64,000 nt of DNA from assembly GCA_964588165.1 (NCBI GenBank), contig CAZPMS010000005.1, forward strand, positions 3,411 to 67,410. Direction: 5' to 3'. Position numbers and translations under genes: made by a program. Positions 3,937 to 51,993 of this stretch are shown here, one piece after another. The DNA comes from an uncultured Gammaproteobacteria bacterium (GTDB lineage Bacteria > Patescibacteriota > Patescibacteriia > UBA1558 > UBA10009). Position 1 is the first letter of the stretch, and each line of letters begins with the position of its first letter. Under the pieces are notes generated by a model, which saw nothing but the letters and a program-made list of their open reading frames with translations, was not told the DNA's origin and did no database searches.

Positions 3937-3960
3937 TTTAAAACATTTATAAATGAAAAG

Positions 3961-4090
3961 TAGGACTGGGGGGTCTGGGGACGGGGCTTAACGCCAAGAC
4001 AAAATCTTTAGAAGCTTAATAAAGCTGAGAGTTAATTTTCGCCCCCAGGGGTTTTTGGTCCTTTTTGGCCGCAAAAAGGGCATAAAGAAA
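3961..4090. repeat. Copy A of a ~130-bp repeated intergenic element (second copy at 12861-12995), ending 3 nt before the polA ATG. Contains the 8-4-8 palindrome CCTTTTTG-GCCG-CAAAAAGG.
   Basis: Direct comparison of the two copies by eye shows a shared GC-rich 5' part (ctggggRcgGcgCTTArCGCCAAGACAAAAT), a shared AGCTGAGAGyTAATT block and a shared GGTTTTTGGTCCTTTTTG-N4-CAAAAAGG 3' part. Confidence 0.6.
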
Positions 4091-4092
4091 GT

Positions 4093-12860: not shown

Positions 12861-12995
12861 ATGAATAGAGAGTCAGGGGCCTGGGGGCGGCGCTTAGCGC
12901 CAAGACAAAATAATAAAAGATAAACAGAGCTGAGAGCTAATTGGCGCCCCTAGTGGTTTTTGGTCCTTTTTGCCACCAAAAAGGACAAGTGAATT
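12861..12995. repeat. Copy B of the ~130-bp repeated element (see 3961-4090). Contains CCTTTTTG-CCAC-CAAAAAGG.
   Basis: About 75-80% identity to copy A over its length, with the palindrome arms perfectly conserved. Lies between the uvrB promoter and the 3' end of the orphan gene at 13064-13480. Confidence 0.6.
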
Positions 12996-16938: not shown

Positions 16939-17003
16939 TTAGGATGCTAGAATGCTAGTTTACTGACATCCTAACCTCCTGACATCCTAACCTCCTAAAT
17001 ACT
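16939..17003 (+). promoter_or_regulatory. Conserved promoter/leader module, copy 1: extended -10 (TGcTAGAAT) plus two tandem CATCCTAACCTCCT boxes ending 7 nt before the ATG
   Basis: ttAGGATGCTAGAATGCTAGTTTACT..GACATCCTAACCTCCTGACATCCTAACCTCCTaaatactATG. Near-identical modules occur at 23144-23207 and 61314-61395. Confidence 0.5.
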
Positions 17004-17480: not shown

Positions 17481-18773
17481 ATGAAAGAATTAATTAAAAA
17501 AATGTTACCGCCGTTTATCTTGAGCTGGTATCACAAAATACTGGCTCTTTTAGCTATGGCTGTTTATAGTAATCCATCAAATAAACTTATAGTTATTGGC
17601 GTAACCGGCACCAATGGTAAATCATCAGTAGTTAATTTAATTGGTGATGTTTTGGAGAAAACCGGCTACAAAGTTGCCTGGAGCTCTACTGTTAACTTTA
17701 AAATAGCCGGTAAGGATTGGCTGAATAATAAAAAGATGACCATGTTGGGCCGGTTCCAAACCCAAAAATTTTTAAAGCAGGCTGTCCAGGTAGAATGTAA
17801 ATATGCTGTTATAGAAACTTCTTCCGAAGGCATAAAGCAGTTTAGGCACCTGGGTATTAATTATGATATTGCCGTTTTTACCAACTTAACTCCGGAACAT
17901 ATAGAATCACACGGCGGATTTGATAATTATAAAAAAGCTAAAGGAGAACTTTTCAAACATCTAACTTCCAAAACTAAAAAAACCATTAGTGGTAAACAAA
18001 TTGATAAAGTTATTGTTGCCAATAATGACGATGAATATGCCCAATACTTTTTAAACTTTAAAGCAGATAAAAAAATTACCTTCTCTATTGATCAGCATTC
18101 TGACTTTAAGGCTACTGATGTAAAGCTTGAATCCAATGGTTCATGGTTCATGGTTCATGGTTCATCATTTAAAACCAATCTCTTGGGTAAAGTAAATATC
18201 TATAATTACTTGGCAGCCATTGCCGTAGCAAAAAGCCAAAACATTGATGATAAAAAAATTAAACAAGCCCTGCTGACATATCAAGGTATACCTGGACGGT
18301 TTGAGTTTATAAAAACTGACCAAGGCTTTAAAGTAATGGTAGATTATGCACCTGAACCGGAATCATTAAAACAACTTTATAATACTTTAAAAATATTTAA
18401 CTTTAATAAAATAATTCATGTATTGGGTTCTTGCGGCGGCGGACGTGATGTAAGCCGGCAACCTGTTTTAGGAAAAATGGCTGCTGAAAATTCTGATTAT
18501 GTAATTATAACCAACGAAGACCCCTACGATGATGATCCTCAAAAAATAATTGATAACGTAGCCACAGGCGCTGAAGCCAACGGCAAAACTTTAGATAAAG
18601 ATTTATTTAAAATTTTAGACAGACACGAAGCCATTAAAAAAGCTTTATCACTTGCAACTGATGACGACTTGGTTTTAATAACTGGCAAAGGTTCAGAACA
18701 ATACATTTGTGTAGCTGGCAACAAAAAAATCCCCTGGGATGACAGAGAGGTGGTTAGAAAGTTGTTAAAATAA
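17481..18773 (+). CDS. murE: Mur ligase family protein, MurE-like (UDP-N-acetylmuramoyl-tripeptide synthetase)
   Basis: 430 aa with the P-loop VIGVTGTNGKSS and the middle and C-terminal Mur ligase domains. Contains an in-frame (tggttca)x4 repeat. Confidence 0.75.
   Translation: MKELIKKMLPPFILSWYHKILALLAMAVYSNPSNKLIVIGVTGTNGKSSVVNLIGDVLEKTGYKVAWSSTVNFKIAGKDWLNNKKMTMLGRFQTQKFLKQAVQVECKYAVIETSSEGIKQFRHLGINYDIAVFTNLTPEHIESHGGFDNYKKAKGELFKHLTSKTKKTISGKQIDKVIVANNDDEYAQYFLNFKADKKITFSIDQHSDFKATDVKLESNGSWFMVHGSSFKTNLLGKVNIYNYLAAIAVAKSQNIDDKKIKQALLTYQGIPGRFEFIKTDQGFKVMVDYAPEPESLKQLYNTLKIFNFNKIIHVLGSCGGGRDVSRQPVLGKMAAENSDYVIITNEDPYDDDPQKIIDNVATGAEANGKTLDKDLFKILDRHEAIKKALSLATDDDLVLITGKGSEQYICVAGNKKIPWDDREVVRKLLK
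18137..18164. repeat. Heptamer tandem repeat (tggttca)x4 inside murE. Encodes GSWFMVHGSS.
   Basis: Seen directly. The same heptamer is repeated at 39311-39329 and once more at 39862-39876 inside the O-antigen ligase gene. Confidence 0.8.
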
Positions 18774-23143: not shown

Positions 23144-23207
23144 AAGAATGCTAGAATGTCAGTTTACTATCGTTCTAACCTCCTAGCATCCTAACCTTCT
23201 ATTAAAT
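23144..23207 (+). promoter_or_regulatory. Conserved promoter/leader module, copy 2, between rpoB and rpoC (extended -10 TGcTAGAAT plus CATCCTAACCTTCT box before the ATG)
   Basis: taAGAATGCTAGAATGTCAGTTTACT...TAGCATCCTAACCTTCTattaaatATG. Compare 16939-17003 and 61314-61395. Confidence 0.5.
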
Positions 23208-28178: not shown

Positions 28179-28276
28179 AGTTTATTTATGTTAGTTAGTT
28201 ATTAAAGACTACTTATTAATATAAATACATTTTGCGAATTTTGTAAAGCACATAATAAAATAAATAATTAAAAAAC

Positions 28277-28305
28277 CGACTCTTAAATGAATCGGTTTTA
28301 TGATT
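28277..28305 (-). terminator. Terminator for the orphan gene at 28325-28711 (aaccga-loop-tcggtt, then a T-run on the minus strand)
   Basis: Hairpin immediately 3' of the stop codon on the minus strand. Confidence 0.4.
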
Positions 28306-28324
28306 GAAAAAGAAAATTTTATTA

Positions 28325-28711
28325 CTATCTTTTCTCCTCAGTATTCACTTCAAAAATACTAAAAGCATCAGAGTAGGGCCCCATAAACAAAAAGGCTGTC
28401 TTTGTTTCACCTTCTAGCTTTAAATAGGCTCCAGGACCTTTTACTCCATAAGGTCCATAAGGAGGCGGAAATTGTTTTATTTCAACCTCCATTAACTCCA
28501 CAGTAAAATTGCTTTGTATAGCAACTTCAGCTTTCAACCTTAACAAAGCACTCCGATGAAGCCGGTGGCCATATATTAAAGGATTGATAAGATTAAGATA
28601 TGAGATGGTGGAAAGTTTTTCTGGTGGCAACTCCACTTTAGCCATACAAGCAATAATCTGACCCCACTCGTTAGGGTGTCGCTCAATAAATGCAGAATAG
28701 TCTTGATCCAT
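28325..28711 (-). CDS. Hypothetical protein. Cassette gene 1, GC-richer orphan with a strong SD (AAGGAAGGAG).
   Basis: 128 aa with no recognised domain. Part of three consecutive minus-strand orphan genes, each with its own terminator. Confidence 0.45.
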   Translation of the reverse strand: MDQDYSAFIERHPNEWGQIIACMAKVELPPEKLSTISYLNLINPLIYGHRLHRSALLRLKAEVAIQSNFTVELMEVEIKQFPPPYGPYGVKGPGAYLKLEGETKTAFLFMGPYSDAFSIFEVNTEEKR

Positions 28712-28800
28712 CTTACTTCTCCTTCCTTGACCAACGGCCTTTTATTACAAAGAACTTTTTTCTCTCAAAATCCACTTTTTAAAAATGAACTTTGGAAGAA

Positions 28801-28823
28801 AGGCGAGAATAAATTTCTCGCCT
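28801..28823 (-). terminator. Hairpin aggcgagaa-taaat-ttctcgcct, terminator of cassette gene 2. A paralogous copy lies at 29301-29323.
   Basis: 9-bp stem about 25 nt 3' of the stop codon of the gene at 28848-29195. The hairpin sequence is repeated downstream of the next gene. Confidence 0.45.
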
Positions 28824-28847
28824 CCGGAATGGAAAACGTAGAAAACT

Positions 28848-29195
28848 CTACTGATGTAATCTGGCATGAGCTTGCCTGCCTCGCTCTGTTGGTTGTGTGC
28901 CGCGAAACAGGGTCGCCATACTAACATCTTGCTGACGCATAACATCTATTTGCCTGTCTTGGTCCTCAACAAGCTTTTGAAGCCGAACAACCTTGGCTTC
29001 CAAATCTTTGCGAGATATAACTACAAAAATACCTAAAGGTAAACCTATTACCATCAACGCTATTCCAGCAGTCGCGCAATCTCTCGCAAAATTGACTTCA
29101 TACCCCAGTGTAAAACCTGGAATAATAATCAATAAAAGGCCGATACAAGCTACAGAAAAACAAACTACTTTATCTGATACAGTGCTCCTCTTCAT
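28848..29195 (-). CDS. Hypothetical membrane protein with C-terminal coiled-coil. Cassette gene 2, GC-richer orphan with a strong SD.
   Basis: 115 aa with two TM helices and a charged helical tail (RLQKLVEDQDRQIDVMRQQD). Confidence 0.45.
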   Translation of the reverse strand: MKRSTVSDKVVCFSVACIGLLLIIIPGFTLGYEVNFARDCATAGIALMVIGLPLGIFVVISRKDLEAKVVRLQKLVEDQDRQIDVMRQQDVSMATLFRGTQPTERGRQAHARLHQ

Positions 29196-29212
29196 CTTCC
29201 TATCCCCTTGTT

Positions 29213-29230
29213 TTAGCTATTTCTAGCCAA
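29213..29230. promoter_or_regulatory. Operator-like palindrome TTAGCTA-TTTC-TAGCCAA in the leader of cassette gene 2 (one mismatch from TTGGCTA-N4-TAGCCAA)
   Basis: Lies immediately upstream of the SD on the minus strand. Part of a ~45-nt leader conserved with the gene-3 leader (GATTGTwCATTTCArGTTAAwTTTGGCTArAAATAGCyAAAACA). Confidence 0.4.
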
Positions 29231-29300
29231 ATTTAACTGAAATGAACAATCGCTTTTCCCTTTCAAAATTTACTTCTTTTTGAAATAAACTTTGAAAGGA

Positions 29301-29323
29301 AGGCGAGAAATTCATTCTCGCCT
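29301..29323 (-). terminator. Hairpin aggcgaga-aattcat-tctcgcct, terminator of cassette gene 3 and paralogue of 28801-28823
   Basis: 8-bp stem about 55 nt 3' of the stop codon of the gene at 29380-29661. Confidence 0.45.
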
Positions 29324-29379
29324 TCGAGGTAGAGGAAGACAGGAAATAATTAAATTTATTAGCTCGACGGGGATTTTGA

Positions 29380-29661
29380 TTACTTAACAACCGGCCCTGT
29401 AATCACCTTTTTAATTACAAAATATGTTTGAGGACCAAGTCCAGCTTTGGGCTTCGGTAGCTGAATTTCAAATTTCCTAGGCCCATCAATTAACTGCCTA
29501 ACTTGCGGATTGAGTCTAACTCCGCTCTGCTCAACAGAAAATTTGGTTATAGCGGCTGTCAATTGCCAGATATTTAATTCATGAACAACCAACTGTTCCT
29601 CGGCAAACTTACCATTCTGAAAAATCCAAAAAACAATAGTAAACTTTCGTTTCTGTTCCAT
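29380..29661 (-). CDS. Hypothetical protein. Cassette gene 3, GC-richer orphan with SD CAGGAGAG.
   Basis: 93 aa with no recognised domain. Confidence 0.45.
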   Translation of the reverse strand: MEQKRKFTIVFWIFQNGKFAEEQLVVHELNIWQLTAAITKFSVEQSGVRLNPQVRQLIDGPRKFEIQLPKPKAGLGPQTYFVIKKVITGPVVK

Positions 29662-29678
29662 CTGTCTACTCTCCTGTT

Positions 29679-29696
29679 TTGGCTATTTTTAGCCAA
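29679..29696. promoter_or_regulatory. Perfect palindrome TTGGCTA-TTTT-TAGCCAA in the intergenic region shared by cassette gene 3 and the divergent TrmB-like regulator
   Basis: Perfect 7-4-7 dyad directly abutting the SD of the gene at 29380-29661. Confidence 0.45.
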
Positions 29697-29851
29697 ATTA
29701 ACTTGAAATGTACAATCTTTTCTCTTTAATAAAACATCATAGCTTTTATTCTACGAGTGGCCAATATGACCCTATGGTGATTAATACCACCTTGACTTTA
29801 TTAATAAAAAATACTACCCTAACTATGGATAGTCTATTAATTTTTAAAATA

Positions 29852-30601
29852 ATGTCAGTAGAAATTCTTCAACAACTAGGTCTTTCCCCTAACGAAGCCA
29901 AAATATATGAGGCTCTTTTGGATTTGAATGAATCCGGAGTAGGAGAAATTTCTTCCAAAGCCGAAATTCATCGGAGGAATGTTTATGACGCCATAAATAG
30001 ATTAATTGATAAAGGTTTAATTTTTCCAATCTTAACTAAAGGCGAAAATTTGTATTCACCGGTAGACCCGGGCAAGCTTTCTGAACTTATTAAAGAAAAA
30101 GAAGTGGGCTTAGAAAAAATAATGCCTGATTTAAGAAAACGTTACGAAGAAAGAGTAGCCAAACAAGAAGCCTACATGTACAAAGGCCTGGAAGGTTTTA
30201 AAAATTACATGCGAGATATTTTAAGAGTTGGCGAGGATGTTTATTTTATCGGGGCCAAACTGGGCTGGTTTGACCCAAGAATAAAAATATTTACCGAACA
30301 ATTTTTAAAAGAAGCTAAGCGCAAAGAGATCACTTTTCATCATATTTTTGATGTTATTGTTAAAGAAAAGGGTAAAGATATTATAAAAAATTTAGAAACA
30401 CCACATAAATTTATGCCAGCCGAATACTCAACCGAATCAGCTGTAGATATTTTTGGTGATTATGTAGTAACCTTTACTGGCTTGGATCTTAAAAAGATTG
30501 ATGTCGGGGTTACTATGTTTGTTTTAAAAGACCAAAAATTAGCAGAAAGTTATAAAACTTGGTTTAAATTCATTTATGATAAATGTCCTGAAATCAATTA
30601 A
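29852..30601 (+). CDS. TrmB-family transcriptional regulator (winged HTH). The start is uncertain and the track ORF begins at 29708.
   Basis: LGLSPNEAKIYEALLDLNESGVGEISSKAEIHRRNVYDAINRLIDKGLI is a typical TrmB N-terminal wHTH. Met49 of the track ORF, placing the HTH near the N-terminus, was chosen as the most likely start. Confidence 0.6.
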   Translation: MSVEILQQLGLSPNEAKIYEALLDLNESGVGEISSKAEIHRRNVYDAINRLIDKGLIFPILTKGENLYSPVDPGKLSELIKEKEVGLEKIMPDLRKRYEERVAKQEAYMYKGLEGFKNYMRDILRVGEDVYFIGAKLGWFDPRIKIFTEQFLKEAKRKEITFHHIFDVIVKEKGKDIIKNLETPHKFMPAEYSTESAVDIFGDYVVTFTGLDLKKIDVGVTMFVLKDQKLAESYKTWFKFIYDKCPEIN

Positions 30602-36092: not shown

Positions 36093-37562
36093 ATGAAATA
36101 CGGAAACTGGCTAAACCTCTGCTTTATTGTTAAAATAACCTTATTATTTATGGAACAAACTAAAAAAATCGCCCGCAACACAATTTGGCAGGTAATTGGT
36201 AAAATAATCGGAACTGCCCTTGGAGTTGTAACTATTGGTTTACTCACCAGATACTTAGGTACAGAAGATTTTGGCCTCTACACCACAGCCGTAGCTTTTA
36301 TGCAGTTTTTTGGCGTGCTGGTAGATATGGGCCTATATTTGATTTGCCTTAAAGAAATCTCAGCCAAGCCGGACAAAGAAAACTTTATATTAAGTAATAT
36401 TTTCACCATAAGAGTAATTTCAGCCATCATATTTATGGGCGGCGGTACACTGCTAATTTTCTTATTCCCCTACCCAATGGTGGTAAAACTTTCGGCTGCT
36501 ATTGTCAGTTTGTCATTCTTTTTCATGACGTTGGTACAGACTTTGACATCAGTTTTCCAAAAATATTTAAAAATGGGCCAAGTGGCCATAGCTGAAGTTG
36601 TTGGTAGGTTTGGTTTTTTAATTGTGATTCTGCTTTTTGTTTTTTATAAAGGAAATCTGCCAGCCTTAATGTGGGGCAATGTTGTAAATACCTTTATTTA
36701 TTTTATTATCCTTTGGTTTTTAATAAAACGATACGTAAAAATTAAATGGGCCTGGGATTTTGAATATTGGAAAGTGGTTTTTAAAAAAAGCTGGCCCATT
36801 GCCCTAGGCGTTGCTTTTAATTTAGTCTATTTTAGAGCTGATACTATTATCCTTTCTTTATTTAAACCAGCAACTGATGTAGGAATATATGGCGCCCCTT
36901 ACAAAATCCTGGAAATTATTGCCACCTTCCCCCATATGTTTATGGGGCTGGTTATGGCACCTCTAACTGCCGCCTGGATTGCCGGCAATTTAGATAAATT
37001 TAAAAACATTACCCAAAAAACTTTTGACTTTTTTATAATCATTCTGGTGCCGATGGTTTTGGGTACTCTACCGCTGGCTGGAGGCATTATGAAACTAATT
37101 GCTGGGGAAGAATTTACAGTTTCTGGTCCGATCCTTTCCATATTGATGCTGGCCACCGGTATTATCTTTTTAGGAATTTTGATGACCTATATAATTGTGA
37201 TTTTAGATAAGCAAAAAGCTATGCTTAAATATTTTTTAATAGCAGCGATCCTAGCTTTAATCGGCTACTTTATTTTTATCCCTAAATATTCTTACTTTGG
37301 CGCTGCCTGGGTAACGGTGGTTATAGAAGGCTTTATTGTAATAACCTCATGGTTGATATTTTATAAATATGCCAAAATTAAACTTTCCTTAAAAATCTTT
37401 TTCAAAAGCCTGGTGGCCGGATTGATTATGATGCTGGCTATTTACCAACTGCCTGGCTTGCATATTTTATTAAATATCCTAATTGGAGCTGTAATTTATG
37501 GCTTAATTATGATAATTACAAAAGGAATTGACAAAAAATTGCTTAGTGATATAGTCAAATAG
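36093..37562 (+). CDS. Polysaccharide/oligosaccharide flippase (MOP superfamily, Wzx/MurJ-like). The probable true start is the internal Met near 36150.
   Basis: 489 aa with about 12-14 TM helices and an N-terminal ARNTIWQVIGKIIG motif typical of Wzx-type flippases. Confidence 0.65.
   Translation: MKYGNWLNLCFIVKITLLFMEQTKKIARNTIWQVIGKIIGTALGVVTIGLLTRYLGTEDFGLYTTAVAFMQFFGVLVDMGLYLICLKEISAKPDKENFILSNIFTIRVISAIIFMGGGTLLIFLFPYPMVVKLSAAIVSLSFFFMTLVQTLTSVFQKYLKMGQVAIAEVVGRFGFLIVILLFVFYKGNLPALMWGNVVNTFIYFIILWFLIKRYVKIKWAWDFEYWKVVFKKSWPIALGVAFNLVYFRADTIILSLFKPATDVGIYGAPYKILEIIATFPHMFMGLVMAPLTAAWIAGNLDKFKNITQKTFDFFIIILVPMVLGTLPLAGGIMKLIAGEEFTVSGPILSILMLATGIIFLGILMTYIIVILDKQKAMLKYFLIAAILALIGYFIFIPKYSYFGAAWVTVVIEGFIVITSWLIFYKYAKIKLSLKIFFKSLVAGLIMMLAIYQLPGLHILLNILIGAVIYGLIMIITKGIDKKLLSDIVK
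37528..37555 (+). promoter_or_regulatory. Promoter TTGACA-16 nt-TATAGT embedded in the 3' end of the flippase gene. It is duplicated at 38121-38148.
   Basis: A 32-bp identical string ATTGACAAAAAATTGCTTAGTGATATAGTCAA occurs at both positions, each about 40-45 nt upstream of a small membrane protein gene. Confidence 0.45.
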
Positions 37563-37597
37563 ATTTTCGCACTTTCAAAACCACAAAGGAGATAGAG

Positions 37598-38071
37598 ATG
37601 TCTGAAATTGCCACAGGCTCCGCATCTGTAGTAAGTGAAGGCGAGATGAACTTTTGGTTATTGTTTGTGTCGCTCGCAACCGTTATTCTTTGTACCGGCT
37701 ATGCCTTTTTCCCTGGTAGTTTTGTTAATATGAATCTGTACATAAGTGCCGGATTATTTCTTTTTGAAGGCGTAATGGTTCATACCAAACTAAACTCCCT
37801 CTATAAAACCCTCTTCAAAGAGAATGAGTGGCAAAGCGGCATGAAATCTAAAATACTAAAAGATGAAATGGCAAAATGCGTATCAATCTCAAACTTTATA
37901 ATGATAATAACTGCAATCATTGTCAGTGGACATTTTCTCCATTTGCTCTTTGGCTTCTTTGGCCTTGAAGTTAACTGGCTGCCCAAGGTCTTTATTTCAT
38001 TCGGAGTTATTATTAACTTAATTTTCTACTACCTATTGTTTTACCCGCTGCTAAATAGGGCTAGAAGTTAG
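37598..38071 (+). CDS. Small 4-TM membrane protein, paralog 1
   Basis: 157 aa with SD AAGGAG. Weak similarity to the next gene (YAF...AGLFLFEG vs YAF...SGLLFAIEG). Confidence 0.5.
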   Translation: MSEIATGSASVVSEGEMNFWLLFVSLATVILCTGYAFFPGSFVNMNLYISAGLFLFEGVMVHTKLNSLYKTLFKENEWQSGMKSKILKDEMAKCVSISNFIMIITAIIVSGHFLHLLFGFFGLEVNWLPKVFISFGVIINLIFYYLLFYPLLNRARS

Positions 38072-38086
38072 TTTAACCTAATAACC

Positions 38087-38112
38087 AACCGTTCAACATT
38101 GAACGGTTTTTT
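38087..38112 (+). terminator. Terminator (ccgttcaa..ttgaacgg + T6). It is duplicated at 38583-38610.
   Basis: Seen directly. Confidence 0.65.
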
Positions 38113-38120
38113 ATTAAAAA

Positions 38121-38148
38121 TTGACAAAAAATTGCTTAGTGATATAGT
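38121..38148 (+). promoter_or_regulatory. Duplicated copy of the TTGACA-16-TATAGT promoter
   Basis: Identical 32-bp string as at 37527-37558. Confidence 0.45.
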
Positions 38149-38187
38149 CAAGTAAATAGTAACTTAACATAACCTAAGGAGAGAACT

Positions 38188-38547
38188 ATGTGGAAACTTG
38201 GAGTGGTCCTCAGCTTGCTAGCCATGATTATCTGCGGCGTCTATGCTTTCGGCATTATTAATCTCCCCCCGGCAATCAGCGGCTTGTTATTTGCCATTGA
38301 AGGTAGTGTAATCACCGTTCTACTTATCAAAGAATCTAAGGCTAATGATGAGCCATTCACTAAATTCACTCTTGCTGCAATAGCCTTTTTCTGCGGATTT
38401 CTGACCGTTGCCATTGTCGGCTGTCATTTTTGGAAGCCACAACTTTTTGCCAGCGCAGGCTTTATAATTAAACTGATTATTTATCTTATAATTACATCGC
38501 TTCCTAAGCCTACGCCACTTCCTGGTACTGAAAAATTTTCAAACTAA
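38188..38547 (+). CDS. Small 4-TM membrane protein, paralog 2
   Basis: 119 aa with SD AAGGAGAG. Confidence 0.5.
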   Translation: MWKLGVVLSLLAMIICGVYAFGIINLPPAISGLLFAIEGSVITVLLIKESKANDEPFTKFTLAAIAFFCGFLTVAIVGCHFWKPQLFASAGFIIKLIIYLIITSLPKPTPLPGTEKFSN

Positions 38548-38582
38548 CTAAAGAAGCAGTCATCTGCTTAAAACTAACATTC

Positions 38583-38610
38583 AACCGTTCAACTCTGAAC
38601 GGTTTTTTAT
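38583..38610 (+). terminator. Terminator (ccgttca-actc-tgaacgg + T6)
   Basis: Paralogous to 38087-38112. Confidence 0.65.
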
Positions 38611-38645
38611 TTGAAAAATAAGCTCTGGCGGGGTAAAATATAACC

Positions 38646-40085
38646 ATGTTTTACTACCTTTTTATTATCATTTTCTACCTGTTATTTGCCTATCTTTGTG
38701 CTAAAAACATCCGCTGGGGTATTTATACAGTTGTAGCCTTACTGCCAACTTATTTGATAAGATATACTGTTTTTGGCATCCCAGGAACTTTACTGGAAGG
38801 CATGATCTGGATTTTATTTATTGTCTGGCTAATCAAATTAAAGCAGGAAAAAAACCTAAGCTTTAATCCTTTAGTTTGGATAAAAAATATATTTAATCAT
38901 CAATCATCAATCATCAATCATAATCCCGTCCCTGATAAACTCAAACTGCCCTTGATTCTATTCCTAATCGCCTCCACCTTCGCCACATTTATTTCCACCA
39001 ATCAACTGGCTGCAGCCGGTATTTGGAAAGCTTATTTTATAGAACCCCTGCTGTTTTTTATAGTTTTTATCTACACAATAAAAAACCCGGTCCACTTTAA
39101 AAAAGCTGTTAGATTTTTAGGGCTAACTGTTTTAGCTATTGGCGTATTTGCAGTAATTCAAAAACTGACTGGGGTGTTAATTTCTAATCCTTTTTGGGCA
39201 GACGAAGCTACTAGGCGAATAACCACCTTTTTCGGCTATCCTAATGCCAATGCTTTATTTGTAGCCCCTGTCTTACTTTTATTAATAGGAAACTTAATTT
39301 CTGATTATAGTTCATGGTTCATGGTTCATAAAAATAACTCGTTATCCATAAACCATAAACTCTGGTGGATTATCTATTATATTATTTGCATTATACTTGG
39401 CACACTGACAATCATTTTTGCCAAATCCACCGGCGGCCTAATCGGGCTCGTTGCCGGCTTAATCTTTTTCTTAATTTTTTATAAAAAAACTAGGTTATTT
39501 ACCTTACTGGCTATTTTGATAATAAGTGCCGGATTGAATTTTTCGACCGGGATTAAAAATAAAATAACTGATACTTTTGCTACCACTTCACAAACCCATT
39601 TACCCTTGGATGCTTCTGATATTCATATGAGATCACAGCAATGGCGCGAAGCTTCTCAAATGCTTATGGATACGCCTGTTTTTGGAGCAGGCTTGGCCGG
39701 TTACCAAAATTTAATGGTTCCCTACCACCAAAATCCGCATGTAGAAATCTATCTATACCCCCATAACTTTTTCTTAAACTTTTGGACAGAAACCGGCTTG
39801 CTTGGCTTAGTTTCAATTATTTGGATTTTATTTGTCTTCTTTTGGTTAGGCCATAGATCATGGTTCATGAATAATAAGAACAACCCAAAGCCCATAAACC
39901 ATAATCAAATATTGACTTTAACGACCAGCATGGCTATGATAACGCTCCTGGTCCACGGCCTGGTTGATGTGCCATATTTTAAAAATGACTTATCATTTTT
40001 ATTCTGGATAATTATAGGCTTGATGATAGTTATATATAATCAATCACGAATAAACACAAATGGTTCACCAATAACTCACAAATAA
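38646..40085 (+). CDS. O-antigen ligase / polymerase-like membrane protein (Wzy_C domain)
   Basis: 479 aa, polytopic, with a PHNFFLNFWTETGLLGLVSIIWIL motif region typical of WaaL/Wzy-like proteins. Carries three in-frame heptamer-repeat insertions. Confidence 0.55.
   Translation: MFYYLFIIIFYLLFAYLCAKNIRWGIYTVVALLPTYLIRYTVFGIPGTLLEGMIWILFIVWLIKLKQEKNLSFNPLVWIKNIFNHQSSIINHNPVPDKLKLPLILFLIASTFATFISTNQLAAAGIWKAYFIEPLLFFIVFIYTIKNPVHFKKAVRFLGLTVLAIGVFAVIQKLTGVLISNPFWADEATRRITTFFGYPNANALFVAPVLLLLIGNLISDYSSWFMVHKNNSLSINHKLWWIIYYIICIILGTLTIIFAKSTGGLIGLVAGLIFFLIFYKKTRLFTLLAILIISAGLNFSTGIKNKITDTFATTSQTHLPLDASDIHMRSQQWREASQMLMDTPVFGAGLAGYQNLMVPYHQNPHVEIYLYPHNFFLNFWTETGLLGLVSIIWILFVFFWLGHRSWFMNNKNNPKPINHNQILTLTTSMAMITLLVHGLVDVPYFKNDLSFLFWIIIGLMIVIYNQSRINTNGSPITHK
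38896..38923. repeat. Heptamer tandem repeat (aatcatc)x3.5 inside the O-antigen ligase gene. Encodes HQSSIINH.
   Basis: Shares a 23-nt identical string with the reverse complement of 9116-9139 in truB. Confidence 0.8.
39311..39329. repeat. Heptamer repeat (tggttca)x2.5. Encodes SSWFMVH.
   Basis: Same unit as in murE (18137-18164). A further single unit at 39862-39876 encodes SWFM. Confidence 0.75.
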
Positions 40086-45172: not shown

Positions 45173-46546
45173 ATGATCAAAAATTTCAAAATATTCACAT
45201 TAATAATCTTAACAGTAGTTGTTAGTACTTCCGGTTTTTCTTGCAAATTATTCCCTTCTAAAGATGTTCCTGAATCTTTAACAAAAACCACTGAACTTAC
45301 CTATTGGGGAGTTTGGGATGATAGCGACTATTTAAAGCCGGTTATCACTGATTTTCAAGCACTGCATCCTAATATAAAAATTACTTATAAAAAATTCCGC
45401 TTCTCTGAATATGAACAAAAGCTATTAGAAGCTTGGGCCGAAGATAGGGGTCCGGATATTTACAGTGTTCCGGCTTCTTGGCTTAAAAAATACCAAAGCC
45501 GCATTACTCCCCAGCCGGAAAGTGTTAGTTTAGCCTTTAGGGAAGTTAAAAAAACTCTGGGCAAAACAGAAATCAATACTGTAGTACGATCGGTACCAAT
45601 TTTTAAAACAAATGATATTAAAAGCCAGTTTGTTGATGTGGTTTATGATAATGTAGTAATAGACAACCAAATTTACGGACTGCCGTATAGTGTAGATACT
45701 TTAATCCTCTATTATAACCGGGACTTACTAGACAGTGCTGGTTTAGCTACTCCGCCTGTTACCTGGACAGGAGTTAAAGAAGCAACTAAAGCTCTTACCC
45801 AAATAGACCAAAATAATAACTTAATTCAAACGGGCGTGGCTATGGGCACTTCGGATAATATTCCCCATGCTGTAGATATAGTTTCACTCTTAATGATGCA
45901 AAACGGCACAGTAATGGTAAATGCCAAGGGCCAGGCTGCTTTCCACCAGCCTGCTTCCGGAGAAAAAGGCTACTTCCCAGGGCAAGAAGCCCTTAGATTC
46001 TATACAGACTTTGCCGATCCTATTAAAGAAGTCTACAGCTGGAACAGCCGGCAACCAGATGCTTTAGACGCTTTTATTTCCGGTCAGGCCGCCATGATGT
46101 TTGGCTACTCCTACCATCTGCCGGTAATAAAAGCCCGGTCTCCCAAGTTGGATATAGGTCTTGCGCCAATGCCTCAAATCCAGGGCGCAGCTAAATCAAT
46201 TAATTACACCGATTATTGGGTAGAAACAGTTTCACATAAATCAAGGAGTGCCGAAATTGCGTGGGGCTTTTTAAATTTTGCTGCCAACCAAAATGAAGTA
46301 ACCAAATATTTAGAAAAAGCCAAAAAACCCTCTGCCCTTAGGTCTTTAATTATAAGCCAAAAAGAAGATCCGGAATTGGCTGTTTTTGCCAACCAAACTT
46401 TAACGGCCGAACACTGGTACAGAGGCAATGATGCTTTAAAAATGCAGGAAATTTTTGAAGAATTAATAGAAGATTTTCCAGATTCAACAGAGCCGTACAA
46501 ACTTTTGGAATATGCTGCTGCCAGAATTAACCAAACTTTAAAATGA
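45173..46546 (+). CDS. ABC transporter extracellular solute-binding protein (family 1, carbohydrate type), lipoprotein
   Basis: 457 aa. The signal ends in FSC (lipobox-like). Overall length and motif spacing fit an SBP_bac_1 protein. Confidence 0.6.
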   Translation: MIKNFKIFTLIILTVVVSTSGFSCKLFPSKDVPESLTKTTELTYWGVWDDSDYLKPVITDFQALHPNIKITYKKFRFSEYEQKLLEAWAEDRGPDIYSVPASWLKKYQSRITPQPESVSLAFREVKKTLGKTEINTVVRSVPIFKTNDIKSQFVDVVYDNVVIDNQIYGLPYSVDTLILYYNRDLLDSAGLATPPVTWTGVKEATKALTQIDQNNNLIQTGVAMGTSDNIPHAVDIVSLLMMQNGTVMVNAKGQAAFHQPASGEKGYFPGQEALRFYTDFADPIKEVYSWNSRQPDALDAFISGQAAMMFGYSYHLPVIKARSPKLDIGLAPMPQIQGAAKSINYTDYWVETVSHKSRSAEIAWGFLNFAANQNEVTKYLEKAKKPSALRSLIISQKEDPELAVFANQTLTAEHWYRGNDALKMQEIFEELIEDFPDSTEPYKLLEYAAARINQTLK

Positions 46547-47319
46547 CTGTGGTAAAAAAAAGTAAATTTTTAATTTTAAGCTTTTTAATTTTAAGCTTTT
46601 TAATTTTACCTAATATTTCTTACGCCCAACTTTTGCCGGCCTGCACAGCCACTGGCAATTGCGGCATCTGCGATATTATAGATACAGCAGTTAAAATATT
46701 CAGGTGGCTCTTGGGTATTTTAGGTGGCACCGCCTTGTTCTTACTTGTCTGGCACGGTTTTGGCTGGCTGACTTCTATCGGCAATAAAGAAAAAATAGAA
46801 GCCACCCGAAAAGCTTTACTAAGTACTGTTGTTGGCATAATAATAATTTTGGCCAGCTGGATTATAGTAAATATTGTTTTGGTAATTTTACTAACCCCGC
46901 CCGAAAGCGTTAATCCTATCCAAACGGTTTTTTCTAATTCCAACAAATGGTATGAATATTGCACCGGCGCCAATACAACCGTTTGCACCGGCAAAGGAGA
47001 GGGCTCTCCTTGTAGGCAAGGGCAATTTTGTTTAACCAGGTGCACTGAATGGGAAACAAAGGGAGAAGGCTCAACTAATCCAATTATACAATGTGTGGAT
47101 AAAAGAACTGGTATGGCAGAAAAATTTAACTGCGGCCTAACTGATTATTATGGACCACCAGATGGCGCTAAATTTGAAAGTGCCTGCGAATTTTGGTCAA
47201 CTCACCCACAATACGAAGATTACCAATGCCTAACAAGTTCAAACTGCACTACGGGTAAAATCCTAGGCAGTGAATATTGTACAAAGGCCGACTTAACCTG
47301 CTGTTTTCCAAATAATTAA
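46543..47319 (+). CDS. Pilin-like array member P0: signal peptide, two TM helices and conserved loop (GFGWLTSIGNKEKIEATRKAL), plus a Cys-rich (~17 Cys) extracellular C-terminal domain
   Basis: 258 aa. Overlaps the SBP stop by 4 nt. Has a 15-nt tandem repeat in the signal region and the same TM-loop-TM core as the ten downstream paralogs. Confidence 0.7.
   Translation: MTVVKKSKFLILSFLILSFLILPNISYAQLLPACTATGNCGICDIIDTAVKIFRWLLGILGGTALFLLVWHGFGWLTSIGNKEKIEATRKALLSTVVGIIIILASWIIVNIVLVILLTPPESVNPIQTVFSNSNKWYEYCTGANTTVCTGKGEGSPCRQGQFCLTRCTEWETKGEGSTNPIIQCVDKRTGMAEKFNCGLTDYYGPPDGAKFESACEFWSTHPQYEDYQCLTSSNCTTGKILGSEYCTKADLTCCFPNN
46567..46609. repeat. 15-nt tandem repeat (tttttaattttaagc)x2.8 encoding LILSFLILSFLIL in the P0 signal peptide
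   Basis: Seen directly. Confidence 0.8.
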
Positions 47320-47337
47320 ATTTTAAAATAGTTTTTT

Positions 47338-47679
47338 ATGAAAAATATTTACAAAATCAGTTTATTCTTCTGCCTGCTTACTTTATTCTTAAGCATGGCC
47401 GGCCCAGCTTTAGCTCAAGCCTTAGACAACCCCCTCGGCAACAATGTTTTGGGGCCCCAAGAACTGTACGGCCGGCTTATATTCAGCTTTATGGGTATTA
47501 CCGGAGTTATTGCTTTATTAATGTTTTTAGTTGGCGGTTTCCAGTGGATGACGGCCGCTGGCAATGCTGAACGGGTAAAAAAAGGAAGGGATACTTTAAT
47601 GTGGGCCATCTTAGGGCTGGTGGTAATTTTTTCCAGTTATGCAATTTTAAGAACCATCTTTGAAACTCTTAAATTCTAA
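47338..47679 (+). CDS. Pilin-like array member P1 (VirB2/TrbC-like topology: signal peptide plus two TM with a short basic loop)
   Basis: 113 aa. Core LMFLVGGFQWMTAAGNAERVKKGRDTLMWAILGLVVIF. Confidence 0.75.
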   Translation: MKNIYKISLFFCLLTLFLSMAGPALAQALDNPLGNNVLGPQELYGRLIFSFMGITGVIALLMFLVGGFQWMTAAGNAERVKKGRDTLMWAILGLVVIFSSYAILRTIFETLKF

Positions 47680-47838
47680 ATAGTAAAACATAGAAAAATA
47701 TTGTATAATAAAGATAGTTTAATAATTAGTTATCCACATAATAAATATTTTATATATTAAAAAAATAAATCAATATTGAAACTTACTTAAAATACTTTGG
47801 TTTAAGTGGATTCAATAATTAAGAAAGGGGGTGAAGAA

Positions 47839-48219
47839 ATGAAAAAATTCTTAACCAAAAAAAATGTTCTTTCACTGGCTGGCTTAACTCTAGGGCTTAT
47901 GCCGGCAGTAGTTTCTGCCCAAGCATCTTTAGGAATTGAGGCTGCTGCCAGTACTGGTTTAGGTTCAAGAGACCTTAAAGATACCATTACATCTGTTTTA
48001 AATGTTTTATTGGGTTTCTTGGGTATTATTGCTGTCATTGTTATTTTACTTGGTGGCTTTAAGTGGATGACTGCAGGTGGTAACGAAGATAAAGTTGCTG
48101 AAGCTAAAAAACTTATTGGCGCAGGTATTGTCGGTTTAGTTATTATCTTAGCAGCTTACGCTATCGCTATTTACGTTATCAATACTATTTCAACGGCTAC
48201 AGTAGATATAGGAGGATAG
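47839..48219 (+). CDS. Pilin-like array member P2
   Basis: 126 aa from the Met with the strong RBS AGGGGGTGAAGAA-ATG (track ORF starts at 47806). Core ILLGGFKWMTAGGNEDKVAEAKKLIGAGIVGLVII. Confidence 0.75.
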   Translation: MKKFLTKKNVLSLAGLTLGLMPAVVSAQASLGIEAAASTGLGSRDLKDTITSVLNVLLGFLGIIAVIVILLGGFKWMTAGGNEDKVAEAKKLIGAGIVGLVIILAAYAIAIYVINTISTATVDIGG

Positions 48220-48287
48220 TGGCTGTATAGACTTAAGAGACTTAGATATTTAGTATTCTATTTAACTTGAATACAATTTAGACAAAT

Positions 48288-48319
48288 CCTCCTGAAGTGT
48301 ATTATTCTTCTTCAGGAGG
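48288..48319 (+). other. 10-bp perfect hairpin cctcctgaag-N12-cttcaggagg between P2 and P3. Its 3' arm contains an AGGAGG SD-like sequence.
   Basis: Seen directly. No T-run follows. The hairpin lies about 30 nt upstream of the P3 start. Confidence 0.4.
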
Positions 48320-48351
48320 AAAGTGTAGATTGTATAAGCCACAATAATAGA

Positions 48352-48810
48352 ATGGACTTCCTCTTTAAAAACAAAAAAAATATAAAAAAGGGTATCTTTA
48401 CCCTATTTTTATTATTGGTTGCTGTTTCTATGATGCCTATCAATGTCAGTGCCGAAACTGATGTTGCCGATGTTGCCGAAGATTTTTTAACCAACGTAGC
48501 CCAGCAAGGCGGAGTAATCCAAGATCCGCAATCAGCTCCCACGGCAGCCCAACTAATTGGCATAAAAATAAAAACCATTCTTAATTTTGTAGGAGTTATC
48601 TTTTTTATTTTAGTTATTTATGGTGGAATAATCTGGATGACAGCCAGTGGCAATGAAGAACAAGTGCAAAAAGCCGTAAAAATATTCAAAGGGGCAGTTA
48701 TTGGAATTATTGTAGTAATACTTGCCTACCTATTAACTAATTATGTTGTTTTTAAAATATCTGATCTAAACCAAATTAGCGAGCCAACTATTGAAGAAGA
48801 TCCTATATAA
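48352..48810 (+). CDS. Pilin-like array member P3
   Basis: 152 aa. Core VIYGGIIWMTASGNEEQVQKAVKIFKGAVIGIIVVILAY. Confidence 0.75.
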   Translation: MDFLFKNKKNIKKGIFTLFLLLVAVSMMPINVSAETDVADVAEDFLTNVAQQGGVIQDPQSAPTAAQLIGIKIKTILNFVGVIFFILVIYGGIIWMTASGNEEQVQKAVKIFKGAVIGIIVVILAYLLTNYVVFKISDLNQISEPTIEEDPI

Positions 48811-48821
48811 TCCTAAACAAA

Positions 48822-49187
48822 ATGAAAAAAGGTCATAAAATTCTACTAATTCTCACTATGGTAAGCCTGGTTTTTTGCCTGGCAAAATTTTCTTTAGCTG
48901 CAGAAATTGATGATGTAATTACTGACTTGGATAATGTTGCAGGACAGGCTAAAATAAACCAAGAGGTTACAACCTTTGAAATTATAGGTACTTTTATTAA
49001 AACTTTTCTTACTTTTATAGGGGCTATTTTTTTACTGTTAATGGTTTATGGCGGGGTTAAATGGATGATGGCCAGCGGCAACGAAGAGAAGATTAAGCAG
49101 GCTTCTGACCTAATTTCCAAAGCAATTATTGGCCTAATTATCATTATCATGGCTTATTTACTAACTAACTATTTTATTTTTAGATAA
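48822..49187 (+). CDS. Pilin-like array member P4
   Basis: 121 aa. Core MVYGGVKWMMASGNEEKIKQASDLISKAIIGLIIIIMAY. Confidence 0.75.
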   Translation: MKKGHKILLILTMVSLVFCLAKFSLAAEIDDVITDLDNVAGQAKINQEVTTFEIIGTFIKTFLTFIGAIFLLLMVYGGVKWMMASGNEEKIKQASDLISKAIIGLIIIIMAYLLTNYFIFR

Positions 49188-49188
49188 T

Positions 49189-49641
49189 ATGAAAACTATA
49201 AAACTAATTTTGCTTATTTTCGCCATAACAGCCCTCTTAAATCCGCCGCTAATAGCCAATGCGCAAGAAAAGGATTTTGCCTGCCCCTATGATACTTTTG
49301 AGGAATGCCAAGAATGGGCACTAGGGCAAGTTGGTGAAACCAGCGGCTATGGCGAGCCCGGGCCCGTTTCTGAAGAGCTTATTGCCCAAAGAGTTGGCCA
49401 AATTATTAGTCTTGTTTTAGGCTTTTTAGGAGTTATATTTTTATTTTTAATAGTTTACTCTGGCGTCCAATGGATGACAGGCGGTGGTAATGACGAAAGG
49501 ATTACTAAAGCAAAAAAAAGAATGATCCAAGCAGTTATTGGTTTGGCTATTACTGTTTCTGCTTTTGTTTTAACAAACTTTATTATAGATAGGCTTCAGC
49601 CCAATATTACCAATAATATAAATGAAGAAGAGCCCATTTAA
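49189..49641 (+). CDS. Pilin-like array member P5
   Basis: 150 aa. Core IVYSGVQWMTGGGNDERITKAKKRMIQAVIGLAITVSAF. The ectodomain contains CPYDTFEEC. Confidence 0.75.
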   Translation: MKTIKLILLIFAITALLNPPLIANAQEKDFACPYDTFEECQEWALGQVGETSGYGEPGPVSEELIAQRVGQIISLVLGFLGVIFLFLIVYSGVQWMTGGGNDERITKAKKRMIQAVIGLAITVSAFVLTNFIIDRLQPNITNNINEEEPI

Positions 49642-49652
49642 TAAATAAAATT

Positions 49653-50024
49653 ATGAAATTAATATTAAAATCTGCCATAATCTTAATTCTTATTACCTTT
49701 AGTTTTTCTTTGGTTGTACAAGCGCAGGTAAATACTGATTTAGTTAGCGACGCCGCTGGAGGCGCCGGCTTTGATACTAGCCAAAGTGATGAAACTATTG
49801 CCCAAAGAGTAGGTGCTATTATTAGTATAATTCTAAGTTTTGTCGGAACAATCTTCTTTATTTTAGTGATTGTATCCGGCATTCAATGGATGACAGCCGG
49901 CGGCAACGAAGAAAAGGTTACCAAAGCCCGCACCAGATTGGTCCAAGCTTCTATTGGCCTGGCTATTACTGTGGCTGCCTACTTTATCACCTGGTTTATC
50001 AGTAATACCTTAGGGGCAGTTTAA
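49653..50024 (+). CDS. Pilin-like array member P6
   Basis: 123 aa. Core VIVSGIQWMTAGGNEEKVTKARTRLVQASIGLAITVAAY. Confidence 0.75.
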   Translation: MKLILKSAIILILITFSFSLVVQAQVNTDLVSDAAGGAGFDTSQSDETIAQRVGAIISIILSFVGTIFFILVIVSGIQWMTAGGNEEKVTKARTRLVQASIGLAITVAAYFITWFISNTLGAV

Positions 50025-50043
50025 ATAAACTTTAAGGCTATAT

Positions 50044-50709
50044 ATGGATAAAAAACTTCTAAAAAGAGTATTGCTATCTTTAATTATAGGTATTTTTTTA
50101 GTTGGGGGTTCTATTTTTGCCCAAGATATTGGTTTAGGCAACACACTTGATATAGTGGCCGATTCTGCCGGCGTCCAAACCAATGTTACTGATCCAACCC
50201 TGCCAGATACCATTATTGGCGCCATAATTACCTGGGTGTTAGGCTTTATTGGCGTACTATTTTTAAGTTTTATTATTTTTGCCGGCTACCAATGGATGAC
50301 AGCCGGCGGCAATGAGGAAAAAGTGGATAAATCTAAAAAAAGAATTATCAGTTCAGTTATCGGCCTGGCTTTAGTCTTTTTCGCTTTTATAATTTCCAAT
50401 CTTATTTTTGAATTCTTTTATGAACAAACTAACAAACAATATGATCAAGGTCCTGAATATGGCGAAGGCCAAATGATTAGTTGTGAAAATAATTCTGATT
50501 GCCCAATAGACCAGCCAGTTTGTACTGAAAGTGGCATTTGGAAATTCTGCTCTTGCAACAACAATTCTGATTGTATAGGCGTCCCTGGCAAGCCAATCTG
50601 CGGTGAAATTGCCTTAAGAATCAACCGCTGTGTAGAATGTGCCAACGATAATAATTGTGCCGAAGGAGAATATTGCGATTTAACTACTTATACTTGTGAA
50701 GAGGAATAA
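50044..50709 (+). CDS. Pilin-like array member P7 with a Cys-rich C-terminal extension (~12 Cys)
   Basis: 221 aa. Core IIFAGYQWMTAGGNEEKVDKSKKRIISSVIGLALVFFAF, then ...CENNSDCPIDQPVCTESGIWKFCSCNNNSDC... Confidence 0.75.
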   Translation: MDKKLLKRVLLSLIIGIFLVGGSIFAQDIGLGNTLDIVADSAGVQTNVTDPTLPDTIIGAIITWVLGFIGVLFLSFIIFAGYQWMTAGGNEEKVDKSKKRIISSVIGLALVFFAFIISNLIFEFFYEQTNKQYDQGPEYGEGQMISCENNSDCPIDQPVCTESGIWKFCSCNNNSDCIGVPGKPICGEIALRINRCVECANDNNCAEGEYCDLTTYTCEEE

Positions 50710-50713
50710 GTTT

Positions 50714-51601: not shown

Positions 51602-51605
51602 TAAT

Positions 51606-51992
51606 ATGAAAAATATCTTAAAAAAAATTACATCTTTAATTTCCATTTGGTTGGTTTTCCCTCTTACTGTTTTAGCGGTCCAGTCTTCTAAAAACAGGCT
51701 GGACGATATTGCACCTTCGGCCGGTTTTGAAACTTCTCCAAATAGCATCCAAGGAATAATTGTAAGCGTTATAACTTATGCCCTGGGTTTTGTTGGAATA
51801 GTATTTTTAATTTTAATGATTTATTCAGGCACCCAATGGATAGCCGCCGGAGGCAACGAAGACATAATTACCAAAGCCAAGAGCAGGTTTAAGCAGGCAG
51901 TTATCGGCTTTGTGGTTATTGGTATTGCTTATGGTCTTACAATTTTAATTGTTAAATTATTAGAAGCTTCTACCTCCAATACTTATTTATAA
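51606..51992 (+). CDS. Pilin-like array member P9
   Basis: 128 aa from the internal Met (track ORF 51561). Core MIYSGTQWIAAGGNEDIITKAKSRFKQAVIGFVVIGIAY. Confidence 0.75.
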   Translation: MKNILKKITSLISIWLVFPLTVLAVQSSKNRLDDIAPSAGFETSPNSIQGIIVSVITYALGFVGIVFLILMIYSGTQWIAAGGNEDIITKAKSRFKQAVIGFVVIGIAYGLTILIVKLLEASTSNTYL

Positions 51993-51993
51993 T

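Follow-up and report, generated by a model that had tools for sequence, protein, structure and literature searches.

A three-gene cassette beside a TrmB-like regulator gene

We have examined a cassette of three small genes that stands back to back with the gene for a TrmB-like regulator in a 64,000-nucleotide stretch of DNA (hereafter, the window) from contig CAZPMS010000005.1 of assembly GCA_964588165.1 (positions 3,411-67,410, forward strand). The source is labelled an uncultured Gammaproteobacteria bacterium, and its GTDB lineage is Patescibacteriota; Patescibacteriia; UBA1558; UBA10009; it is an ultra-small bacterium of the candidate phyla radiation (CPR). Within the piece under study (window positions 28,277-29,851), three open reading frames (ORFs) lie on the minus strand, exactly where the original prediction had placed them: g3 (29380-29661), encoding an orphan soluble protein of 93 aa; g2 (28848-29195), encoding a 115-aa protein in which two hydrophobic segments precede a coiled-coil-like tail; and g1 (28325-28711), encoding an orphan protein of 128 aa. 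The order in the putative operon is g3-g2-g1, and its internal spacers, at 29196-29379 and 28712-28847, are 136-184 nt long. The regulator gene (29852-30601, plus strand, 249 aa) is divergent from g3, and an alignment of its homologs backs the start at 29852. The cassette is flanked on one side by an esterase gene and rpoC, and on the other by the TrmB-like gene, PCC, NUDIX and FtsK. Our best explanation, to which the sequence lends about an even chance, is that g3-g2-g1 form a single TrmB-controlled operon whose cistrons are separated by stem-loops acting at the level of RNA.

The cassette had been described as GC-richer than its surroundings. A difference does exist (0.39-0.43 for the ORFs versus 0.356 for the window), but it is modest and falls inside the range of rpoC. 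About 20 contigs, drawn from several samples (JGI 3300009375, 3300009374 and 3300009405 are examples of samples with the strain), represent it in the data, and they are all clonal, with 0-1 single-nucleotide polymorphism over up to 3.6 kb compared.

The three proteins are small, unrelated to one another and devoid of recognisable domains, as had been supposed, with essentially no homologs among billions of sequences. No significant match to g1, g2 or g3 was obtained in Pfam, NCBIfam, PADLOC or PHROGs, the best of the non-significant family matches being that of g2 to a '4TM effector' (E = 0.014). Three word-seeded searches of 5.8e9 protein clusters returned same-strain copies only, as did a full HMMER scan of 1.8e9 representatives with g1. 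The sole exception to this orphan status lies in the tail of g2, where residues 82-111 match part of a small protein from related locus L136 at 67% identity (47 bits); in that distant CPR genome, too, the gene for the protein stands divergent from the TrmB-like gene. As read from its sequence, g2 carries hydrophobic segments at about residues 11-29 and 41-60 with the coiled-coil-like tail after them, and it has the appearance of a membrane protein that crosses the membrane twice and ends in a coiled coil. A single-sequence AlphaFold2 model of g3 has a beta-beta-alpha-alpha-beta layout at a predicted local distance difference test score (pLDDT) of 69 and finds no meaningful fold match; the corresponding model of g1 (pLDDT 45) is unusable. 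Viral scans with g2 and with the L136 protein as queries gave 0 matches. The suggestion that the cassette might encode toxin, immunity or defence functions finds no support: PADLOC, Pfam, NCBIfam and PHROGs contain no known toxin, antitoxin or defence family that matches the proteins, the spacers are long for such a system at 136-184 nt, and the proteins have no viral relatives.

Each of the three genes has a strong Shine-Dalgarno (SD) sequence, unlike its neighbours. This observation of the original prediction not only stands but extends across the whole window, in which rpoB, rpoC, FtsK, RecA, the TrmB-like gene, PCC and NUDIX have no SD. A strong AAGGAG-type SD precedes twelve small genes, namely those at 993, 8539, 10186, 13064, 13672, 37598, 38188, 47839 and 60909 together with g1-g3 (28325-29661), and 11 of the 12 encode no Pfam domain. 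Such a division, of housekeeping genes without an SD and small genes with one, is relevant to the partitioning of translation initiation in CPR bacteria.

Duplicated and structured modules in the spacers

Two kinds of module are repeated within the cassette, each of them twice, in agreement with the earlier proposal that regulatory modules have been duplicated. The first is a leader. Copy 1 (29662-29724, minus strand, as are all cassette features below) is the inferred 5' untranslated region (UTR) of g3, with the SD GGAGAG at 29674-29669; copy 2 (29196-29258) lies between g3 and g2, with the SD region GGGGATAGGAAG at 29207-29196. The two are part of a 66-nt direct repeat (29659-29724 versus 29193-29258) of 77% identity, and the 43-nt IUPAC pattern by which the leader was first described has 2 exact matches in the window against 0 expected. 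The accompanying claim that every gene has this leader holds for g3 and g2; the leader of g1 (28712-28760) shares only its first ~13 nt and has a different mini-hairpin, GGCC-GTT-GGTC at 28739-28729, ahead of its SD region GGAAGGAGAAG at 28726-28716. A metagenome scan for the leader pattern gave 0 matches in a collection without this organism, though JGI contigs of the strain exist, and viral scans for the leader and the hairpin also gave 0 matches.

The second module is a double hairpin. The GC-rich hairpin GGCGAGAA-N5-TTCTCGCC occurs at 29302-29322 and 28802-28822, against 0.1 occurrences expected, so that the repeated hairpin reported earlier is indeed present in two copies. GC hairpin 1 spans 29300-29324, with a 10-bp stem and a 5-nt loop, and GC hairpin 2 spans 28800-28824; both are embedded in a 50-75-nt repeat that is ~78% identical between copies. 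Adjoining each is a long AU-rich hairpin that the earlier description had missed, at 29259-29299 (16-18 bp) in the first spacer and at 28761-28799 in the second. Furthermore, a pyrimidine tract lies 5' of each GC hairpin. Both tracts complement the SD region of the gene that follows: g2 for tract 1, CTTCCTCTACCTC (29326-29338), whose pairing appears in both the minimum free energy and the centroid folds, and g1 for tract 2, TTTTCCATTCC (28826-28836). The duplex energies are -15.3 kcal/mol for tract 1 (top 0.5% of background windows) and -12.3 kcal/mol for tract 2 (top 4%). Compared with shuffled sequences, the spacer RNAs fold with z = -6.8 (first spacer) and -5.0 (second), and in the predicted fold the tract pairs with the next SD and thereby encloses the GC and AU hairpins, with an additional dyad hairpin in the first spacer. 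No further copy of either module was found in the 64 kb. Rfam at its gathering threshold recognises two tRNAs only in the window and, at E values up to 10, hairpin-like noise only.

The substitutions that separate the two copies of the double-hairpin module are informative. Among 26 predicted pairs, 0 are broken, 2 have changed in a compensatory manner and 3 have become G·U, with loops that vary freely; put differently, pairing survives at all 7 substituted stem positions, at a divergence of 22% between copies. The G·U pairs form on the sense transcript only and would be mismatches on DNA or antisense RNA. The pattern is that of a sense-strand secondary structure kept by selection, as seen in two copies.

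A further component of the leader is the dyad TTGGCTA-N4-TAGCCAA, which was rightly noted to be perfect before g3 and to have one mismatch before g2. Dyad 1 (29679-29696), TTGGCTA-AAAA-TAGCCAA, forms a 7-8-bp stem-loop that ends 4 nt before the SD, and dyad 2 (29213-29230), TTGGCTA-GAAA-TAGCTAA, lies inside leader copy 2. The window holds 25 perfect 7-N4-7 dyads, and hence it is the duplication and not the palindrome that exceeds chance. Between the two copies, 0 of the 8 pairs are broken and 1 has changed to G·U on the sense RNA. Because the substitutions in both the module and the dyad preserve pairing on the sense RNA, a function at the RNA level is favored.

The dyad had been put forward as the binding site of the TrmB-like protein, with a search for additional sites as one way to check this. 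We extended the search to 160 related loci containing TrmB-like relatives (numbered L015-L094 and L095-L174), and counts below refer either to these 160 or to the 80 genome loci. The window has no second exact copy of the dyad and the 160 related loci have none, the dyad differs from the element that is conserved throughout the regulator family (see below), and its one mismatch is a G·U pair on RNA, all of which speak against the proposed role. Upstream of the 80 homologs, the best dyad matches have at least 3 mismatches except at L016, where a 1-mismatch dyad was considered as a conserved operator and rejected, the site being inside a signal-peptide coding region. The dyad is most likely a small RNA stem-loop and not a TrmB operator.

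A conserved element upstream of the TrmB-like gene

The assignment of the divergent regulator to the TrmB family proved sound. Its N-terminal winged-helix domain matches PF01978 with E = 1e-15 and 57.8 bits, the cut-off being 25.6, and its best NCBIfam match is TrmBL1 (1.5e-08 over residues 3-242). Relatives of 48-75% identity number 148 in genomes and 232 in metagenomes, and occur in metagenome-assembled genomes labelled Peregrini-, Doudna-, Kerfeld-, Uhr-, Buchanan- and Saccharibacteria.

Upstream of the regulator gene lies the element GAGTGGCCAATATGACCCTATGGTGATTAATACCACC (29755-29792, plus strand), which consists of an invariant GAGTGGCCAA followed by three CACC/GGTG half-sites spaced ~10 bp apart. 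The element, ~40 nt long, is present without gaps in 54 of the 80 genome loci across CPR phyla, with 14 invariant columns and the consensus GAGTGGCCAATA-nCACC-N4-GGTGnTA-N2-TAnCACC. In the window its half-sites read ATCACC-N4-GGTGAT and overlap both divergent promoters. The Thermococcales glycolytic motif (TGM), TATCAC-N5-GTGATA, is bound by TrmBL1/Tgr (PMC4158304). The half-sites of the CPR element are the same as those of the TGM, with the addition of one spacer base and a third half-site. We considered whether the element might form an RNA hairpin and rejected this; since the pairing of its arms does not exceed that of shuffled controls, a protein-binding site on DNA is likelier than an RNA helix. 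A text search of the literature for its invariant 10-mer returned only papers on adeno-associated virus inverted terminal repeats and none about CPR.

The position of the element relative to promoters is also suggestive. Directly abutting it is TTGACT (29793-29798, plus strand), the predicted -35 box for transcription of the regulator gene itself; clade relatives L015-L021 have TTGACA at the same position, and at L095 the element is followed by TTGACA-N16-CATAAT, with 11/12 matches. Ahead of the element, most loci have a TTGAC-N17-TATAAT promoter. On the opposite strand, the predicted -35 box of the cassette, TTGGCC, lies within the element as the complement of the invariant GGCCAA, and a reverse-strand TTGGCC-N17-TAnnnT is found in 47 of the 54 related loci. 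Because the element carries TGM-like half-sites, overlaps the cassette -35 and abuts that of the regulator, the TrmB-like protein probably controls both divergent promoters from it. The element is thus the probable TrmB operator in a bidirectional promoter region, and a better candidate for that role than the dyad.

The idea that the divergent position of the cassette is meaningful gains from the comparison, as 43 of the 45 loci that possess the element and could be scored have a divergently oriented gene upstream. The usual divergent partner is a sodium:solute symporter or a secreted, beta-barrel-like protein of ~195 aa. The latter (L064 9276-9878, L078 1810-2382, L017 1021-1596 and L016 88-672) is beta-rich, has an aromatic end and shows a weak OMP_b-brl match. 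CPR bacteria are not known to have an outer membrane, which makes an OMP_b-brl-like partner odd.

Comparison with related loci

Within the 160 related loci there are no homologs of g1, g3, the esterase, the PCC gene or the modules. The closest relative in the collections scanned, L095 (FLOH01001461.1), has a TrmB-like protein of 74% identity and, at 4700-5900, three short ORFs, each led by an SD, whose products measure 70, 97 and 71 aa; the 71-aa product contains two hydrophobic segments. An intergenic module of 253 nt is repeated there at 85% identity, without promoter or terminator matches; its RNA folds with z = -5.3, and a pyrimidine tract again pairs with the next SD. The L095 array therefore resembles that of the window in occupying the same slot divergent from a TrmB-like gene and its element, in containing three small SD-led ORFs of which one has two transmembrane segments, and in repeating a strongly structured intergenic module with a tract that pairs with the next SD. 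It differs in that neither proteins nor modules share any sequence similarity with those of the window, and in that its modules measure 253 nt as opposed to ~140 nt. We considered whether the L095 proteins were diverged orthologs of g1-g3 and rejected the possibility, no similarity being detectable.

At L136 (Ga0172381_10018032), two tandem paralogs at 3388-4510 are divergent from the TrmB-like gene, and their 121-nt 5' modules are 95% identical. One of the paralogs has a 30-aa insert, QIDAMKQQEQAMAALFRGAQPTREGRTAHA, which is the segment that is 67% identical to the g2 tail; the motif common to g2 and L136 reads QIDxMxQQxxxMAxLFRGxQPTxxGRxAHA. That reiterated modules might be enriched next to TrmB-like genes was examined and rejected, with 10 cases among 117 upstream regions versus 11 among 109 downstream regions.

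A model for the cassette and its alternatives

A scan for sigma-70-like promoters, at a threshold of 9 of 12 consensus matches, identified a predicted cassette promoter at 29736-29764 (minus strand), with TTGGCC at 29764-29759, a spacer of 17 nt and TATGAT at 29741-29736 (9/12). The only other minus-strand match near the cassette is upstream of the esterase gene, and none occurs on this strand in the spacers 29196-29379 and 28712-28847. The sole canonical intrinsic terminator on the cassette strand follows g1 (28270-28299; an 11-bp stem and then TTTTTT) and would mark the end of the operon. The GC hairpins have U-rich tails, UUCCUUUC and UUUCUUCC, in which the T-run is interrupted by C, and neither passes the terminator scan. 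The original prediction of a promoter, an operator and a terminator reiterated for each gene is consequently not upheld.

We propose that the single promoter TTGGCC-N17-TATGAT (29764-29736) would drive g3-g2-g1 as one transcript ending at 28299-28270, and that the TrmB-like protein would act on the element that overlaps the cassette -35 and abuts the regulator's own. Each spacer would then contribute four parts, in this order, to the transcript: the pyrimidine tract, which by pairing with the SD of the following gene may occlude it; the GC hairpin with its C-interrupted U-tail, which may be a leaky terminator or a 3' stabiliser; the long AU hairpin, a candidate site for a double-strand RNase; and the small stem-loop (dyad) just 5' of the SD. 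Jointly, these parts would determine how strongly the three cistrons are expressed relative to one another and how stable they are. With regard to leader 2, its similarity to leader 1 starts a few nucleotides from the inferred start of the 29764-29736 promoter and stops at the ATG, and for this reason a copy of the g3 5' UTR is a better description of it than a second promoter.

Several considerations weigh against this model. The transcription start and the read-through of the GC hairpins are deduced from sequence, and the leaders do contain a weak TGTACA-N17/18-TAAAAA(T) match. The GC hairpins with their U-rich tails could terminate efficiently, in which case g2 and g1 would need promoters of their own. 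Part of the conservation of the reverse-strand promoter at related loci stems from a forward -10 box that overlaps it. Pairing of the pyrimidine tracts with the SDs lacks copy specificity, and a search for the RNase III signature motif found none in the 64-kb window. The statistics of pair preservation are thin, coming from two module copies only. Finally, the regions downstream of TrmB-like genes contain local direct repeats as often as the upstream ones do, and hence reiteration is not specific to the slot divergent from them.

If the GC hairpins were terminators, the leaders promoters and the dyads DNA operators of the TrmB-like protein or of some other repressor, each gene would be a transcription unit of its own. 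The placement of the hairpins after g3 and g2, the conservation of the leader ahead of two unrelated ORFs and a palindrome that follows a putative -10 box and precedes the SD, where operators are classically found, all agree with such an arrangement, and the small genes at 37598 and 38188 in the same window each do have their own identical promoter and terminator. Nevertheless, the outcome of the two scans is against it, every candidate -10 hexamer in leader 2 is without A2 or T6, and the dyad, besides being unlike the family-wide element, absent from relatives and able to pair through its mismatch on RNA, would lie at about +33 to +50 from the predicted start near 29729. We therefore regard separate transcription units as unlikely.

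The repeats might also be a neutral relic, in which tandem duplication or gene conversion copied the flanks without any dedicated function and the ORFs then diverged or were replaced. Direct repeats spaced 150-1500 nt apart are found in ~10% of 3.5-kb CPR segments, equally upstream and downstream of TrmB-like genes, and the window has a second case in which weakly paralogous genes (27% identical) have identical promoters. Chance copying fits poorly with the substituted stem positions, none of which breaks a pair while the loops vary, with module edges that fall exactly on the ATG and on the base of the hairpin, and with the similar structured spacers of L095; such an origin seems improbable to us.

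It is very doubtful that the ORFs are not genes at all and represent non-coding or decaying DNA. Their codon-usage scores (0.15-0.21, compared with 0.29 ± 0.09 for long genes) are ~1-1.5 standard deviations under the long-gene mean, yet they are positive in the annotated frames only, and GC content is higher at the first codon position than at the second and third (GC1 above GC2 and GC3). The missing homologs and a nonsense change of TTG to TAG at codon 22 of g2 (window 29131), present in one assembly (L006, JGI 3300007504), would suit this explanation. Set against them are the strong and well-spaced SD of each gene in a genome where most genes have none, the g2 tail motif held in common with L136 (47 bits) and the pLDDT of 69 that the g3 model attains without an alignment, and g1-g3 look coding despite the lack of homologs. 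Least plausible are mobile gene cassettes (integron-like, phage-derived or resembling miniature inverted-repeat transposable elements (MITE) or repetitive extragenic palindromic (REP) sequences) with the modules as recombination or insertion sites, for although unrelated ORFs do stand between the same 5' and 3' modules in a region that varies between relatives, no RYYYAAC...GTTRRRY core-site pair 40-150 nt apart was found in four spacers on both strands, the adjacent genes (esterase, rpoC, TrmB-like, PCC, NUDIX and FtsK) are not recombinases and no integrase is next to the array, the modules have no further copies in 64 kb, unlike dispersed REP/MITE repeats, neither modules nor proteins have viral matches, and all 14 contigs from other samples are clonal with an identical layout.

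Relation to known systems

The locus is an instance of two known kinds of arrangement, the divergent regulator-target pair and the structured intercistronic spacer. With TetR/tetA-type pairs and with TrmBL1/Tgr on the TGM it has in common a regulator divergent from its presumed target and one conserved palindromic element over both promoters. The likeness to TrmBL1 and the TGM extends to the half-sites TATCAC/GTGATA, to the PF01978 winged helix and to TrmBL1 as the best NCBIfam match. However, the promoters here have bacterial (CPR) sigma-70-type boxes in place of the transcription factor B recognition element (BRE) and TATA box; the half-site spacer is N6 (ATCACC-N4-GGTGAT) and not N5, with a third half-site and the invariant GAGTGGCCAA in addition; and the regulator, at 249 aa, is without the last ~100 positions of the TrmBL1 profile, its operator being one predicted from sequence.

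The spacers of the proposed operon bring to mind the RNase III sites of phage T7 and the hairpins of the puf and mal operons, in that stable hairpins between cistrons could protect the upstream 3' end, a long duplex adjoins them and folding could expose or mask the SD that follows. They differ in that the AU stem, at 13-18 bp, is at or below the usual length of an RNase III substrate, in that no rnc gene is seen in the window, and in that the modules are reiterated as near-copies that include the 5' UTR. The cassettes of integrons, with their attC sites, are likewise arrays of small unrelated same-strand ORFs divided by similar hairpin-forming repeats; unlike them, the array described here has no core sites and no adjacent integrase, and has long SD-bearing 5' leaders, two copies of each module and a clonal layout.

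It is tempting to speculate that, in some lineages, the slot divergent from the CPR TrmB-like regulator, which is among the few regulators found here to be strongly conserved, hosts a fast-turnover array of small, SD-led, lineage-specific proteins, whose intercistronic RNA modules, each joining an SD-occluding pyrimidine tract to stacked hairpins, evolve in concert within a genome and become unrecognisable between genomes. The window, L095 and L136 would then exemplify one regulatory design, switched by the CPR-wide, TGM-like bidirectional element, for accessory proteins of the surface or of host interaction. This generalization is decidedly conjectural, and we would not expect it to hold. The cassette alone would be a small lineage-specific operon of limited direct importance. 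Its location in the target slot of a CPR-wide regulator, beside that regulator's deeply conserved element, nevertheless makes it an entry point to transcriptional control in organisms that are not growable alone. Indeed, the CPR-wide TGM-like element, the SD dichotomy and the parallel array of L095 may merit more attention than the cassette itself.

Other repeats and genes in the window

At 37526-38616 (plus strand), two adjacent genes encode small membrane proteins of 157 and 119 aa that are 27% identical. An identical 33-nt promoter module (TTGACA-N16-TATAGT) stands ahead of each of these genes, at 37598 and 38188, and similar terminators, CCGTTCAAC..TGAACGGTTTTTT, follow them, so that they provide a genuine case in the same genome of promoter and terminator reiterated per gene.

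A pyrimidine motif, (CTGAC)ATCCTAACCTCCTAA, occurs on the plus strand at 16943-16998, 23163-23202 and 61352-61391, in each instance directly upstream of an ATG; the genes concerned are, in this order, an ORF at 17004, rpoC (23208) and a second ORF at 61396. It carries CCUCC, which is the same as the anti-SD and not its complement. A GC-rich intergenic repeat of ~110 nt is present at 3970-4082 and 12876-12987 (plus strand), 8.9 kb apart and 81-89% identical; it includes the hairpin CTTTTTGG/CC..AAAAAG and matches no Rfam family.

Approximately ten tandem paralogs at 46543-52593 (plus strand) encode small proteins with a WMTAGGNEE motif; the one member examined (47839-48219) matches the type IV secretion system pilin family PF18895. 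Short repeats of the CATGGTT(CATGGTT)n type are located at 18142-18178, 39306-39358 and 39852-39904, two of these sites being 546 nt apart.

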